From: Solirubrobacterales bacterium
GTDB taxonomy: Bacteria; Actinomycetota; Thermoleophilia; Solirubrobacterales; 70-9
DNA length: 64,000 bases
Assembly: GCA_036494495.1 (NCBI GenBank)
Contig: DASXOF010000133.1
Location: forward strand, 3,315-67,314
Direction: 5' to 3'
Both the position numbers and the translations under genes were made by a program. This document shows positions 11,435 through 19,789 of this stretch, piece by piece. The notes beneath the pieces are model-generated. The model was given only the letters and a program-made list of their open reading frames with translations, was not told where the DNA came from and made no database searches. Positions within the stretch are counted from its first letter, which is position 1; the number at the start of each line of letters is the position of its first letter.

Positions 11435-12796
11435 TCAACCTGACTCCGCCGTCACTGCAAGTCGCTCCCCGGCGAGCTCCGGCAGCAGCGGCTGCAGGAC
11501 CCGGTTGGCGGTCAGCCCGAGGCAGCCGAGGTTGGCGAACCCCGGCCCCTGGCTGAGGCCGCCGAGGCCGGGGATGTGAAGTCGCGGCGAGAGGCCGCGC
11601 AGCTCCAGCGCCCGGCCGATCGGGACCTCGGTCCCCGGCGGCGTGTCCCAGACCTGACCGGCCTCGCGCTCGACCACGGCCCGGACCTCGTCGGAGAAGA
11701 GGCTGCGCAGCTGCGCCAGCAGGTCGAAGCCGGTGCAGTTGACGACGTAGTCGAACTCGGCCGCCACCACCCCGCCCGGCGCCTCGTACTCGAGGCTGAG
11801 CGCCTCACCGCTCGCGGCGAGGCCGGCGTGGAGGGCGCGGCCGACCTCGAACGAGGAGTGCCCGTCGCCCGACAGCGAGGCGATCACGCCGGCGTCGAAG
11901 ACGCCGCGGTCGGCGTGCTTGACGAAGTCGCGGCGGGCCTGCTGGTCGAGCCGTTCCCAGCTGACGTCGTCGGGGTCGGCGAAGACCCGGTTCTCGAGGA
12001 AGCTCTCGCCGCGGCTCATCGGCAGGAGCGGCGTGAAGACGGTGAGACTTGCGAGCGGCCGGAAGGCGCGGAGGAAGACGAGGGCGCTGAGGGCGCTCTC
12101 GCCGCCGCCGAGGATCGCGATCTCGACCTCCTCGTCCTCGGCGATGCCGGCGAACTCCGAGCGGCGGCTGTCGCAGTGGAAGAGCCGCGGCGCCGCCGCC
12201 GGGTCGTGCGGCAGGGCGCGGTGGACGCCCGGGCCGGTCAGCAGCAGGGCGCCGCCGACGTGGCGCTCGGGGTCGTCGGGCTGGCCGCGCTCGGTCACCG
12301 CGATCGCCCAACGCTCGGGGTCGTCTTCGATCGTCACCGACTCGACCCGGCCGTGCAGCAGCCGCACCCCCTCGGTTGCGCGCTCGAGCACCCAGCTCAG
12401 ATAGGCGCCGTAGTCGCGGTGGCGGACCGAGGGCGCGCCGGAGTTGACCCAGCCGGCGTACTCGCCGCGTTCGATCGCGTAGCGCTGCCAGCTGAACGGC
12501 AGGAGCGCCGCGTCGATCGCGTCGCCGGCGGCGCCGAACTGCCGGTAGCTGCGGTACGGGAAGCCGACGTCCTTGATCGGCGGGATCGCCAGCGGCTCCT
12601 CGCCGGAGGTCATCCCGTTGCGGCCGAGCCAGGACGCGGCGGGCTCGGTTTTCTCGACGATCGTCAGCGTCAGCTGGCCGAGGCCGAGCCGGTTGACGAC
12701 GTGGACCTTGGCGGCGATCGCCGCCGCCTTGGCGCCGGCGCCGACAATCAGGAGGTCGGCTTCCGGCGGCGCCTCCGTCTGGCTTGCGGTGCTCAT
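11435..12796 (-). CDS. FAD/NAD(P)-binding monooxygenase (lysine/ornithine N-monooxygenase-like, tentative)
   Basis: Two dinucleotide-fold motifs are present (LLIVGAGAKAAA and IAILGGGESALSA). ATG 12796 overlaps the P450 stop (ATGA). Confidence 0.6.
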   Translation of the reverse strand: MSTASQTEAPPEADLLIVGAGAKAAAIAAKVHVVNRLGLGQLTLTIVEKTEPAASWLGRNGMTSGEEPLAIPPIKDVGFPYRSYRQFGAAGDAIDAALLPFSWQRYAIERGEYAGWVNSGAPSVRHRDYGAYLSWVLERATEGVRLLHGRVESVTIEDDPERWAIAVTERGQPDDPERHVGGALLLTGPGVHRALPHDPAAAPRLFHCDSRRSEFAGIAEDEEVEIAILGGGESALSALVFLRAFRPLASLTVFTPLLPMSRGESFLENRVFADPDDVSWERLDQQARRDFVKHADRGVFDAGVIASLSGDGHSSFEVGRALHAGLAASGEALSLEYEAPGGVVAAEFDYVVNCTGFDLLAQLRSLFSDEVRAVVEREAGQVWDTPPGTEVPIGRALELRGLSPRLHIPGLGGLSQGPGFANLGCLGLTANRVLQPLLPELAGERLAVTAESG

Positions 12797-14085
12797 CAGG
12801 CGACCGGTTCGGCGATCACCAGGCCGCGCCTGGCGGGCGCGAAGGAGATCGCGGATTTCTTGATCGCCTCGCCGCGCCGCTCGGCCGGTTCGAGGCGGAC
12901 GCTCGCGAGCACCGTGCGGATCACCCGCTTCATCTCCATTTCCGCGTAGGAGGCGGCGAGGCAGCGGCGGACGCCGCCGCCGAAGGGGATCCAGGTGTAG
13001 GTGCCGGGCGGCGTCGCGAGGAAGCGCTCGGGGAGGAAGCGGAGCGGTTCGGCATAGTTCGCCGGGTCGCGGTGGACGAGGTGGATGCAGGGCGCGACCG
13101 TGGTCCCCGCCGGCAGCTCGCGGCCGGCCAGCCGCAGCGGCGCCAGCAGCCGGCGGACCACCACCGGCACCGGCGGCCGCAGCCGCAGCGTCTCCTTGAT
13201 CACCGCGTCGAGGTAGGCGTCGCCCTCGCCCGCCAGCACCTCCTCGCGGGTCCGGGCGAGCACGTCGGGGTTGCGCAGCAGCCGCTCGAAGGCCCAGGCG
13301 AGGGTGCTCGAGGTCGGGCCGTCGGAGAGCAGCGTCACCAGTTCGTCGCGCAGGTCGCGCTCGCTCATCGGCGAGCCGTCCTCGTAGCGGGCGCGGACCA
13401 GCATCGAGACCACGTCGCGGGGCTCCTCCTCGGGCTCGGCGCGGCGGCGGCGCGCCTCGGCGATCACCGCTTCCTCGACCGGCCGCATCGCCTCCCGGTA
13501 GCCGCGGCTGCGGGTCATCGCGCCGGGGCCGAAGGCGGCGAGCAGGGCGAGGTTGCGGGGGCTGTTGAGCCAGGCGGTGAGGCGGCGCAGGCGCTCGCGC
13601 AGGCCGTCGAGGCGGCGGTTCTCGCCGGAGCCGAAGACCGCCCGCATCACCACCTCCTGGGTGATCTCCTGCATCCGCGGCCAGAGCTCGAACGGCTCCC
13701 CCACCGGCCAGCGCTCGACTTCCTGCCGCGCCACCGTCGCCATCATCTCGGCGTCGGCCTGGACCGCGCCGCCGTGGAAGGAGGGCAGCATCAGCTTGCG
13801 CCGCTGCAGGTGCTCGGGTTCTTCCATCAGCATCACCGAGCGCGGGCCGAGGACCGGCCCCAGCAGCGGGTTGGCGAGGTCGACGCCGACCGCCTCGCCG
13901 GCGGTGAAGACGGCTTTGACGTCGGCCGGGTCGCTGAGGATCACCCAGTCGCCCCAGTGCATGATCCGCAGCGTGAAGGCGTCGCCGTACCGCCTGTGGC
14001 AGCGCTCCAGATAGGGCAGCGGCCGTTGCGTCCAGGCGACCGCCTGCATCGCCCGCGGCAGCCGCGGGCCGGGTGGCATGCTCAC
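12796..14085 (-). CDS. cytochrome P450
   Basis: The heme-thiolate loop is FGGGVRRCLAASYA and the ExxR motif is in KETLRLRPP. GTG 14085 overlaps the upstream stop; the alternative start is ATG 14079. Confidence 0.9.
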   Translation of the reverse strand: MSMPPGPRLPRAMQAVAWTQRPLPYLERCHRRYGDAFTLRIMHWGDWVILSDPADVKAVFTAGEAVGVDLANPLLGPVLGPRSVMLMEEPEHLQRRKLMLPSFHGGAVQADAEMMATVARQEVERWPVGEPFELWPRMQEITQEVVMRAVFGSGENRRLDGLRERLRRLTAWLNSPRNLALLAAFGPGAMTRSRGYREAMRPVEEAVIAEARRRRAEPEEEPRDVVSMLVRARYEDGSPMSERDLRDELVTLLSDGPTSSTLAWAFERLLRNPDVLARTREEVLAGEGDAYLDAVIKETLRLRPPVPVVVRRLLAPLRLAGRELPAGTTVAPCIHLVHRDPANYAEPLRFLPERFLATPPGTYTWIPFGGGVRRCLAASYAEMEMKRVIRTVLASVRLEPAERRGEAIKKSAISFAPARRGLVIAEPVA

Positions 14086-14405
14086 GCCGCCCGCTCCCGG
14101 CCCAGCCGGCGTTCGCGCTCGAGCCGGTCCATCAGCTCGTCCTCGGCCCGGCAGGTGGCGGCGATCAGCAGCTCGAAGAGGTTGGCGGTGAAGTCCGCCG
14201 GCAGCTCGACCGCGGCGCCGCGGTCGAGGTAGCGCCGGCGCACGACCTCGACCCGGTCGGGCTGCATCATCGCGATCTCGTGCTCGCTCTTGTAGACGGC
14301 GACTTCGCGGCAGATCTGGAAGCGCTCGCCGAGCAGGCGGGCGACCTCCTCGTCGATCACGTCGAGGCGGTCGCGGAACGGCTGCAGGCCGCCGGTCTCG
14401 CTCAT
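14082..14405 (-). CDS. AroQ-class chorismate mutase-like protein (candidate 4-amino-4-deoxychorismate mutase)
   Basis: The 107-aa product reads MSETGGLQPFRDRLDVIDEEVARLLGERFQICREVAVYKSEH...QPDRVEVV. ATG 14405 overlaps the upstream stop. Confidence 0.75.
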   Translation of the reverse strand: MSETGGLQPFRDRLDVIDEEVARLLGERFQICREVAVYKSEHEIAMMQPDRVEVVRRRYLDRGAAVELPADFTANLFELLIAATCRAEDELMDRLERERRLGRERAA

Positions 14406-19693: not shown

Positions 19694-19716
19694 CCCCCAA
19701 GGGCTCCGCTCGGAGA

Positions 19717-19789
19717 TGCACCGGCCGGGGCTCGAACCCGGATCTACGGCTTACAACGCCGTCCCTTTAACCGATTAAGGCACCGGTGC
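19717..19789 (-). tRNA. tRNA-Thr (anticodon UGU), 73 nt, CCA not encoded
   Basis: I folded the cloverleaf manually. The acceptor stem is GCACCGG/CCGGTGC and the D arm is CCTT-AATCGGTTA-AAGG. The anticodon arm is ACGGC-GTTGTAA-GCCGT. The T arm is CCGGG-TTCGAGC-CCCGG and the discriminator is A. Confidence 0.8.

Follow-up and report, generated by a model that had tools for sequence, protein, structure and literature searches.

Why should a tRNA gene stand at the head of a bacterial operon of metabolic enzymes, directly in front of a gene for an arginyl-tRNA synthetase (ArgRS)-like protein? The question was raised by a 64,000-nucleotide stretch of a Solirubrobacterales bacterium (GenBank assembly GCA_036494495.1, contig DASXOF010000133.1, positions 3,315 to 67,314 of the forward strand), hereafter called the window. 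It has a G+C content of 72%, and the host genome comprises 3.37 Mb in 200 contigs. An initial inspection of the letters alone (the sequence-only reading) had proposed a tRNA-led, seven-gene operon joining an ArgRS paralog to aminodeoxychorismate chemistry, and it had left the use of the leading tRNA open. Our results show that the tRNA is inherited together with the paralog, as its partner, and that no other part of the locus is as unusual. In the explanation that we prefer, and to which we give about an even chance, the two constitute a private tRNA/synthetase-like pair, which would feed a non-arginine aminoacyl group into a small-molecule chemistry of hydroxylamines and aromatic amines.

The tRNA is the only ARAGORN call in the window. 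It is followed after 23 nt by seven coding sequences on the minus strand, for the ArgRS paralog, a fused PabA–PabB protein (PabAB), a GNAT acyltransferase, a deacetylase, an AroQ-class protein, a cytochrome P450 and a flavin-dependent monooxygenase (Table 1). The proposed gap was borne out by the ARAGORN call and a check of the reading frames, and the proposed gene identities by Pfam, NCBIfam and Protein Data Bank (PDB) searches. Overlaps of 4 nt had been claimed for every junction between the seven coding sequences. Five junctions are indeed 4-nt ATGA or GTGA overlaps, while the P450/monooxygenase junction (12796-12798) overlaps by a single nucleotide, TGATG. The gene of a pyrroloquinoline quinone (PQQ)-type propeller lipoprotein starts 19 nt past the monooxygenase stop codon, preceded by the strong Shine-Dalgarno sequence GGAGGA, as had been read.

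Comparison with relatives confirmed that the arrangement is a real, conserved tRNA-led operon, far beyond chance. The tRNA and the gene set, colinear or rearranged, were present in all 19 GTDB loci fetched, which come from three paralog-bearing genera, and in about 80 metagenome loci; synteny had been the expectation, and chance adjacency does not describe these loci. (Genera, genomes, contigs and loci are denoted by our own labels beginning with g, G, C and L.) The eight-gene order was the same in the full-length loci of g1, g135 and g124, regardless of the anticodon. Rearrangements occurred in metagenome loci: in one form the P450, N-hydroxylase and propeller genes are divergent and placed ahead of the tRNA, in another an antisense tRNA separates the AroQ gene from the P450 gene, and in a third no deacetylase gene stands between those for GNAT and AroQ. 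The gene set stays together through these rearrangements, which indicates that its members are functionally linked.

To survey the linkage of the tRNA and the paralog, we used 401 genomes from the GTDB family of this bacterium, and 63 of them contained the paralog (33 of the 35 in g1, both in g124, 27 in g135, and one in g150, G345, at 39% identity); it was not found in the other genera sampled within the family. The operon tRNA was likewise detected in 63 genomes, the same set bar one mismatch each way: in G345, a different tRNA(UCU) precedes the paralog, and G594 scored for the tRNA only. The linked tRNA always adjoined the paralog gene, usually 20–50 nt upstream. A separate canonical tRNA-Thr(UGU)-like gene is kept in five complete relatives, and the genomes with a UAA anticodon in the linked tRNA retain a normal long-arm tRNA-Leu(UAA). 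Samples of 300 genomes from the class and 400 from the phylum yielded no paralog. A wider paralog family of 193 clusters (E <1e-30) was obtained from a metagenomic protein library, and an ESM Atlas search returned only uncharacterised ArgRS-like clusters. Apart from the probable source sample, other sequencing runs hold small shares of the window only. The co-occurrence and adjacency of the tRNA and the paralog mark them as a private, co-inherited pair.

The operon tRNA scored 65 bits with the Rfam tRNA model (cut-off 29). Its oddities are a C10-G25 pair, G32, A73, a 4-nt variable loop and the lack of an encoded CCA. It is the second tRNA(UGU) of the genome; the canonical tRNA-Thr(UGU) lies on contig C167 and resembles the other threonine tRNAs. 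In the alignment of the linked tRNAs, the acceptor stem, the D arm, the T arm and the discriminator base were almost invariant. Compensatory changes occurred in all four helices, with double changes at 9 of the 21 pairs, and 98.6% of the cells were paired. None of the 500 shuffled controls attained the observed values, and slid controls paired in at most 49%. Single-sequence thermodynamic folding recovers the cloverleaf poorly, and the structure is based on the covariation and the Rfam score. By these measures, the cloverleaf is a real tRNA under selection. The arginine identity elements of a tRNA are C35 and A20. The linked tRNAs carry G35 or A35 and a U at position 20, and the loss of both elements would keep the housekeeping ArgRS off them. 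As to its origin, descent from tRNA-Arg was considered and found no specific support in the own genome, where the best matches of the operon tRNA (about 69%) are tRNA-Lys, tRNA-Asp and tRNA-Ala and the tRNA-Arg genes are not specifically the closest; however, the 39%-identical paralog of G345 does stand behind a tRNA(UCU), so that such a descent may still apply.

The body of the tRNA stays while its anticodon changes among the rarest codons or is deleted. UGU occurs in g1 and in a part of g135. UAA occurs in the rest of g135 and in most metagenome loci, the latter having been recovered with a search pattern that excluded G35, and the UAA-type loop, CUUAAAA/C, was constant across many different stems. 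UAG occurs in a long-branch lineage, and the UAG forms carry a pyrimidine at position 37. In g124, the 7-nt loop is replaced by an extended 5-bp stem capped with a GCAA tetraloop, while the whole operon is kept; this form cannot present an anticodon. On the paralog tree, the anticodon must have changed five times or more, with two or more origins of UGU. Two metagenome tRNAs have further loop forms, L104 with an 8-nt anticodon loop (CUGUAAAC), which is the size found in frameshift suppressors, and L137 with the loop CUUAAGA.

The sequence-only reading had taken the ArgRS-like gene for a paralog, and this was supported by the finding of a canonical ArgRS (418 bits) on a separate contig, C110. 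The operon protein scored 84.5 bits with TIGR00456, for which the cut-off is 261.65. Its AlphaFold2 model, built from a 71-sequence alignment, had a predicted local distance difference test (pLDDT) value of 92.7. Foldseek matched the model to full-length ArgRS structures, including tRNA complexes, with template modelling (TM) scores of 0.66–0.72 over about 570–670 columns, and the weaker matches included MshC. The profile alignment spans both the N-terminal tRNA-binding and the C-terminal anticodon-binding domains. According to the model, the paralog has the full three-domain class Ia ArgRS fold (N-terminal, Rossmann catalytic and helical anticodon-binding domains). The HIGH motif is found at 124-127, and HxGH is invariant across the 71 family members. 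The KMSKS loop reads SSSKEG, in a family with the pattern KSSxG and an invariant Ser. The arginine-binding residues are lost. Tyr347 and Asp351 of yeast ArgRS (1BS2) correspond to Gln321 and Ala325, and the Gln and Ala are found family-wide. In the profile alignment, yeast Glu148 corresponds to Tyr113 in this paralog, and Asn153 is kept. A family-invariant GxEW occupies the position where ArgRS has ASQQ. Since the guanidinium-binding Tyr/Asp pair and the Glu are replaced, and the score is far below the ArgRS cut-offs, we do not regard the paralog as an arginine enzyme. We read it as a protein that would still bind ATP and tRNA but activate a non-arginine substrate.

The plainest explanation would be an ordinary duplicated tRNA-Thr lying ahead of a resistance-type or redundant ArgRS and unrelated metabolic genes. 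Co-transcription of tRNA and protein genes is known, for example from the E. coli tufB operon, and ARAGORN does label the operon tRNA as tRNA-Thr. The comparative data already contradict this explanation: the same tRNA body has UAA, UAG or no anticodon in sister lineages, it is linked one-to-one to a paralog with the low score and altered pocket described above, and the gene set is conserved in about 100 loci. We leave it next to no probability.

A second possibility is that the paralog does not release an aminoacyl-tRNA. It might be a tRNA-independent ligase of the MshC type, or the tRNA might serve only as an allosteric cofactor for adenylate formation, as in ArgRS; the tRNA gene would then mainly provide a cofactor or an element for 5' processing or stability of the transcript. 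In MshC, a class I synthetase paralog is already known to join an amino acid to a small molecule with no tRNA involved (PMC9437257), and the presence of MshC among the weaker Foldseek matches points in the same direction. No tRNA was detected near the family members L023, L025, L071, L340 and L342 or near a paralog on contig C169 of the own genome, the GCAA variant shows that the anticodon itself is dispensable, and no aminoacyl-tRNA transferase is recognisable in the operon. Against this stand the strict co-occurrence and adjacency of the two genes across three genera despite gene-order rearrangements, and the near invariance of the acceptor stem, the discriminator base and the T arm, as expected for use of the 3' end. 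The depletion of ACA codons in the UGU lineages, which is described below, would also be hard to explain without a charged tRNA reaching the ribosomes. Taken together, we consider a tRNA-free or merely cofactor-assisted ligase unlikely.

The anticodons of the linked tRNAs point to codons that are among the rarest sense codons of the own genome (TTA 0.21, ACA 0.62 and CTA 0.74 per 1000). Within the operon, the count of ACA relative to seven control NNA codons was 20:247 in UAA-type g135 loci, as compared with 8:502 in UGU-type g135 and 5:490 in UGU-type g1 loci (Fisher p 6e-5 and 4e-6, for related lineages that amount to about 2–3 independent events); in the tetraloop genus g124, it was 5:84. 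We also compared the own genome (UGU-type) with 86% of the complete UAA-type genome G418. At identical aligned positions genome-wide, the own/G418 ratio of ACA was 0.38, the lowest of the 30 A/T-ending codons, and that of TTA was 1.12, among the highest. ACA is selectively depleted in the UGU-type lineages. The simplest reading would be that the charged private tRNA reaches the ribosomes at some level and that selection limits the damage. Rare-codon anticodons would be kept because a mischarged tRNA can leak into translation.

The same codon data bear on a deliberate ribosomal use comparable to that of pyrrolysine, whether as natural code expansion or as programmed ambiguous decoding. The paralog would then charge the private tRNA with a non-standard amino acid produced by the operon, such as a derivative of p-aminophenylalanine or N-hydroxylysine, and the ribosome would insert it at the rare codon matching the anticodon, ACA here and UUA or CUA in other lineages. 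The placing of tRNA, synthetase and biosynthetic genes in one operon mirrors pylTSBCD, and the anticodons always match the rarest sense codons. The CUUAAAA/C loop constant over many stem variants, the repeated evolution of UGU, and the depletion of ACA both in the operon and genome-wide are what such decoding might also produce. Furthermore, ACA positions of the own genome align with Arg in G418 at 8.7%, against 1.9% for the ordinary Thr codons ACC and ACG, with small counts. On the other hand, not one site with ACA here and TTA there was found among 319,897 aligned codons in 873 ortholog pairs. Thr codons were the main counterpart of ACA here (48 of 104), and Leu codons that of TTA there (11 of 24). 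The absence of ACA/TTA sites, the intact operon of g124 with its tetraloop in place of the anticodon loop, and the pyrimidine at position 37 of the UAG forms argue against programmed insertion. The retained canonical tRNA-Thr(UGU) and tRNA-Leu(UAA) would compete with the private tRNA, and the minimal core of the cluster (see below) is without obvious enzymes for building an amino acid. The ACA codons of the UGU-type operons are few, and a comparison of these operons for shared ACA positions gave scattered sites only, with one variable PabAB position common to three loci. We find programmed insertion improbable. A variant of it, in which the sense codon assigned to an operon-made or modified amino acid varies between lineages (ACA, UUA, CUA) and the tetraloop lineage is a secondary loss, appears quite unlikely; the link between anticodon and codon usage and the decoder-like conserved loops speak for it. 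As a separate observation, 18 of the 48 Thr-aligned ACA codons align with ACA in G418, though ACA makes up only a few percent of the Thr codons. Conserved rare codons at orthologous sites were thus far commoner than expected in this comparison, with small counts.

Deliberate mistranslation with a standard amino acid was weighed as well. The ProRSx/tRNA-ProA systems are mistranslation pairs of Streptomyces and relatives, in which ProRSx still uses proline. A synthetase paralog beside an anomalous tRNA, with an anticodon mismatched to the parental amino acid, is their actinobacterial signature and is found here too. A pair of this type would put a standard amino acid, for example arginine, on a Thr- or Leu-reading tRNA as a regulated stress response, and the neighbouring genes would be unrelated in function. 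A weak surplus of Arg at the orthologous counterparts of ACA and TTA codons agrees with such a function. Yet the arginine-binding residues are replaced throughout the family, the metabolic enzymes are translationally coupled to the paralog and are co-conserved with it through rearrangements, and the tetraloop variant cannot decode. A mistranslation pair is therefore very unlikely in our view.

Which part of the operon is the older one? The sequence-only reading had joined the paralog to aminodeoxychorismate chemistry, but the distant relatives show that this chemistry is not the core. Three loci with paralogs of 45-49% identity (L069, L070 and L129) have a minimal cluster of tRNA(UAG), paralog, deacetylase and N-hydroxylase only. 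The propeller gene, which is kept beside the cluster in every full-length locus, directly follows the N-hydroxylase in L129, lies about 6 kb off in L069, and was not found in L070. In L025, a 37%-identical paralog is translationally coupled to an N-hydroxylase alone. Because the distant relatives carry this shorter cluster, PabAB, AroQ, GNAT and P450 must have joined later, and the older module consists of the tRNA, the paralog and the amine N-hydroxylase. In L070 (L070:3586-8111), two LAGLIDADG homing-endonuclease reading frames occupy an otherwise gene-free 6-kb stretch immediately ahead of the tRNA(UAG); they suggest an intron-bearing rRNA gene beside the minimal cluster.

The enzymes of this older module could be specified further. 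The monooxygenase had been described as a two-Rossmann flavin enzyme, which is correct as far as it goes; it is specifically an amine N-hydroxylase of the NbtG type, with an E-value of 1.8e-60 to the lysine N6-monooxygenase NbtG (PDB 4D7E) and a PF13434 match. For the deacetylase, the histone deacetylase (HDAC) fold was retained and sharpened, as the protein is most similar to acetylpolyamine amidohydrolases, which are its nearest solved structures (1e-27). All its catalytic motifs (HH, DxH, GxD and EGGY) are present in the translation.

The added enzymes begin with PabAB, a fusion of a glutamine amidotransferase with a chorismate-binding enzyme. It scored 365.7 bits with TIGR00553, above the cut-off of 328.4, and its translation contains the PIKGT motif with the PabB-type active-site lysine. 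A second fused PabAB, 49% identical, is encoded at C143:12322-14367 and is presumably the enzyme of the folate pathway; the own genome also encodes TrpE/TrpG on C89 and a fourth chorismate-binding enzyme on C159. The GNAT protein has the acetyl-CoA-type RxxGxG/A motif. The AroQ protein keeps Arg11, Arg28, Lys39 and Arg51, while the equivalents of Glu52 and Gln88 of E. coli chorismate mutase are Val and Glu, a mapping that is our own colinear reading and not the output of a tool. By this reading, the residues of pericyclic catalysis would be kept, and the contact residue for the C4 hydroxyl group of chorismate, as known from the E. coli enzyme, would be replaced. Sequence alone does not separate a mutase from a lyase, and the AroQ protein could equally be a lyase giving p-aminobenzoate, comparable to PchB and salicylate. 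The PabAB/AroQ pair thus bears the hallmarks of 4-amino-4-deoxychorismate chemistry that had been noted for it. The own genome encodes six paralogs of the P450, five at 35-48% identity and one at 27%. On C110, the propeller lipoprotein has a paralog (38% identity) about 3 kb from the canonical argS, the positions concerned being 7418-8893 and 11706-13337. This pairing echoes the operon; it may be the remnant of an old segmental duplication or may have arisen by chance.

Table 1. Features of the operon and its immediate surroundings (window coordinates).
Feature	Position	Strand	Basis
Promoter-like element	19843..19870	-	Read from sequence and locus conservation
tRNA* (dedicated cloverleaf tRNA, anticodon UGU)	19717..19789	-	ARAGORN, Rfam, covariation
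ArgRS paralog (ArgRSl, 561 aa)	18008..19693	-	PF00750, 25 bits; TIGR00456
Fused PabA-PabB aminodeoxychorismate synthase (719 aa), dedicated second copy	15852..18011	-	TIGR00553
Small GNAT N-acyltransferase (157 aa)	15382..15855	-	Domain searches
HDAC-fold zinc deacetylase (327 aa)	14402..15385	-	Hist_deacetyl; PDB matches
AroQ-class chorismate-mutase-like protein (107 aa)	14082..14405	-	CM_2
Cytochrome P450 (429 aa), E-class / CYP51-like group	12796..14085	-	Domain searches
Flavin-dependent amine N-hydroxylase (453 aa), NbtG/MbtG-like	11435..12796	-	PDB 4D7E; PF13434
PQQ-type beta-propeller lipoprotein (521 aa)	9850..11415	-	Domain searches; lipobox signal peptide
Polar-amino-acid-type ABC transporter, ATPase	20029-20778	-
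Polar-amino-acid-type ABC transporter, permease	20775-21617	-
Polar-amino-acid-type ABC transporter, probable binding protein	21614-22612	-

With the above results in hand, we propose how the private pair may work. A promoter upstream of the tRNA would give one transcript, from which the tRNA would be excised to leave an mRNA for the seven translationally coupled genes and the propeller gene. The paralog, a descendant of a synthetase that cannot activate its amino acid without tRNA, would bind the private tRNA, activate a non-arginine amino acid, and probably esterify the tRNA with it. The aminoacyl group would then be passed not to the ribosome but to an amine, or to a hydroxylamine supplied by the NbtG-like N-hydroxylase, for which the acetylpolyamine-amidohydrolase-like deacetylase may free the substrate. 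This would yield an O- or N-aminoacyl hydroxylamine, in other words a hydroxamate or a compound from which an N-N bond could be formed. Aminoacyl transfer to hydroxylamine is also the basis of the classical hydroxamate assay of synthetases. In the clade of the window, PabAB and AroQ would convert chorismate through 4-amino-4-deoxychorismate to an aromatic amine (p-aminobenzoate or a p-aminophenylalanine-type unit), and GNAT, deacetylase and P450 would protect, deprotect and oxidise this part by way of an N-acetyl intermediate. The earlier suggestion, in which an aromatic amine would be joined to an amino acid and oxidised, with an N-acetyl form as intermediate, remains plausible. The anticodon would specify no residue. 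Selection would park it on UUA, CUA and ACA and purge ACA under UGU, and in one genus it would have replaced the anticodon loop with a tetraloop.

The chemistry proposed here has described precedents. Synthetase-type activation joined with N-hydroxylases is known, and O-aminoacyl-hydroxylamines rearrange to N-N bonds in valanimycin biosynthesis and in the cupin/MetRS-like hydrazine synthetases (PMC11705231). Valanimycin (VlmL/VlmA/VlmH-R) and the hydrazine synthetases of the Spb40 and Tri28 type share synthetase-type activation and a flavin N-hydroxylase with the operon. The paralog here is derived from ArgRS, and not from SerRS or MetRS, and the operon has neither a cupin domain nor a VlmA-type transferase. 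Valanimycin uses a housekeeping tRNA and the hydrazine synthetases use none, whereas here the cluster encodes its own. Intermediates of the O-aminoacyl-hydroxylamine kind are also processed by a GNAT enzyme and a deacetylase in the fosfazinomycin and kinamycin pathways.

Several points weigh against the proposal of a private aminoacyl carrier. Every organism concerned is represented by an uncultured metagenome-assembled genome. No aminoacyl-tRNA-dependent transferase was recognised, which leaves the hand-over step without an assigned enzyme: no Fem/VlmA-type protein, leucyl/phenylalanyl (L/F)-transferase, cyclodipeptide synthase or PEARL was recognisable in or near the operon by Pfam and NCBIfam. 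The zinc cupin that completes the known hydrazine synthetases, where it is fused to a MetRS-like domain, was absent from the Pfam and NCBIfam matches of the operon and its flanks, as was any MetRS-like domain. A PapC-type 4-amino-4-deoxyprephenate dehydrogenase is also missing from the cluster, so that the aromatic branch cannot be completed on paper; the search for a prephenate-dehydrogenase-like domain, which covered the operon and its flanks but no other part of the genome, found none. Three further points show that the anticodon matters in some way: within the lineages, strong conservation has kept a normal 7-nt anticodon loop with U33 and A37 on a stem that varies, UGU was acquired on at least two occasions, and ACA is selectively depleted in the lineages with the UGU form. 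These points fit the avoidance of leakage and a deliberate ribosomal use equally well.

We examined the upstream region for signs of joint expression. The promoter-like element consists of a -35-like TTGCGT (19865-19870), a 16-nt spacer and an extended -10 TGTTATGCT (19843-19851). The latter is found about 55-60 nt upstream of the tRNA in seven of the nine aligned loci of the same genus, the other two having GGTTATGCT or GCTTATGCG, and g135 has TGCTAGGAT at the equivalent place. A strict sigma-70 scan called no promoter, and the element is recognised by its conservation between loci. The conserved extended -10 would fit co-transcription of the tRNA and the operon. In a soil metatranscriptome, contigs from relatives at about 85-92% identity were found for six of the operon's seven genes, with none of the listed pieces on GNAT, and they bridge the P450/monooxygenase and AroQ/P450 junctions; carry-over of DNA in that library is possible. 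The contigs fit co-transcription weakly, without proving it. The ABC transporter trio further upstream is also present in L009 and L010, where the binding protein matches SBP_bac_3. It is a conserved neighbour in close relatives and a candidate member only. A TetR-family regulator (8713-9306, minus strand) lies just downstream of the propeller gene and is a possible regulator of the operon; it does not occupy that position in L009 or L010.

The wider paralog family is found in other gene settings. One setting contains a phosphopantetheinyl transferase, an adenylation–thiolation (A-T) didomain, a guanidinoacetate-methyltransferase-like enzyme and a GNAT protein, and others include a PRMT-like methyltransferase. 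The own genome has a third ArgRS-like gene at C169:18613-20259 (L020:9626-11296), 34-36% identical to the operon paralog, which is directly upstream of the genes for both subunits (alpha and beta) of D-lysine 5,6-aminomutase; the nearest 9 kb or so gave no tRNA call by ARAGORN. In L091 (G345:C2), the 39%-identical ArgRS-like gene (4987-6690, minus strand) follows a tRNA(UCU) (6722-6795, minus strand) located 31 nt upstream, with a methyltransferase and an ATP-grasp amino-acid ligase downstream. The body of this tRNA(UCU) is more ordinary, and G345 appears to hold another tRNA that is nearer to a canonical tRNA-Arg(UCU). L091 may represent an earlier stage of the same tRNA–paralog module. In L071 (3239-7071), a LeuRS-like gene (703 aa, with an editing-domain match and Anticodon_1) overlaps the start of a 37%-identical ArgRS-like gene, so that two synthetase-like genes are translationally coupled. 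In L341 (7133-13052), an ArgRS-like gene is followed by a PrmA/PRMT-like methyltransferase, a gene in convergent orientation codes for a 649-aa protein that matches Anticodon_1 only, and the strand of the ArgRS-like gene has a tRNA(CAU) some 800 nt further upstream. In G624, which is of the same genus as the genome of the window, the paralog (C2:1528622-1529703) is in two pieces with an internal TGA. L019 gave fragmentary matches only for all the operon genes. These two may be decaying copies or the result of indel errors in long-read assemblies.

How does the locus compare with other systems that it resembles? The sequence-only reading had recognised no characterised cluster and no PapC, nonribosomal peptide synthetase, polyketide synthase or ATP-grasp genes; the absence of these genes stood, and searches of Pfam, NCBIfam, PADLOC, PDB and the full-text literature produced no matching cluster. 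PADLOC gave no match to a defence system. In organisation, the locus parallels the pyrrolysine cassette pylT-pylS-pylBCD, in which a dedicated tRNA is likewise directly followed by a dedicated synthetase and biosynthetic enzymes, the whole is inherited as a unit, and the codon concerned is rare in the host genome. However, the synthetase here is derived from class I ArgRS, as opposed to the class II PylRS. The anticodons are those of sense codons, for which the normal tRNAs are kept, and one lineage is without an anticodon loop. No conserved in-frame target codons were found in the comparison with G418, and the enzymes are unrelated to PylBCD.

The mycothiol enzyme MshC, a CysRS paralog that acts with MshB and MshD, provides a similar set in actinobacteria, consisting of a class I paralog ligase, a deacetylase and a GNAT protein. 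Unlike the paralog described here, with its strictly linked private tRNA, MshC needs no tRNA and has none linked to it, and the deacetylases belong to different fold families. The PapA/PapB/PapC pathways of pristinamycin, chloramphenicol and obafluorin have the same combination of a PabB-type aminodeoxychorismate synthase and an AroQ-class mutase-like protein. In contrast to them, the cluster holds no PapC dehydrogenase, aminotransferase or nonribosomal peptide synthetase, and the pair is accessory to the older core of tRNA, paralog and N-hydroxylase. Copies set aside for the non-ribosomal use of aminoacyl-tRNA are also known: the staphylococcal non-proteinogenic tRNA-Gly, which serves the Fem peptidoglycan bridge, and the LysRS-MprF fusion LysX work with a standard amino acid and a standard synthetase specificity. 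The present locus differs in having a private tRNA as well as a private synthetase, the latter with an altered amino-acid pocket.

As far as its sequence can be read, the locus departs in defining features from each of the pyl, ProRSx, valanimycin/hydrazine-synthetase, MshC and Pap families. Full-text literature searches on ArgRS-like enzymes, synthetase paralogs, cluster-encoded tRNAs, N-hydroxylysine with tRNA and N-N bond enzymes found no description of such a system, and the reviews PMC9437257 and PMC11705231 name no ArgRS-derived paralog. What is without precedent, within tRNA-dependent secondary metabolism and tRNA–synthetase cassettes, is that a cluster encodes an orthogonal-looking tRNA, the anticodon of which has shifted between rare codons or disappeared.

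A role of the tRNA as a private aminoacyl carrier would make this the first cluster of the natural-product type, to our knowledge, with an orthogonal tRNA/synthetase-like pair of its own, and tRNA-dependent biosynthesis would be extended past borrowed housekeeping aminoacyl-tRNAs. The route to orthogonality would be a natural one, in which the synthetase gives up its arginine pocket, the tRNA gives up C35 and A20, and the anticodon retreats to the rarest codons or is removed; the pair would be a new candidate for use in synthetic biology. If the tRNA decodes after all, the locus would represent a new natural expansion of the genetic code. The switching of the anticodon together with the codon depletion offers a rare natural experiment in which a mischarged tRNA may shape codon usage. 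The chemistry itself points to a hydroxamate- or N-N-containing metabolite, which would be made by abundant uncultured Solirubrobacterales of the soil.

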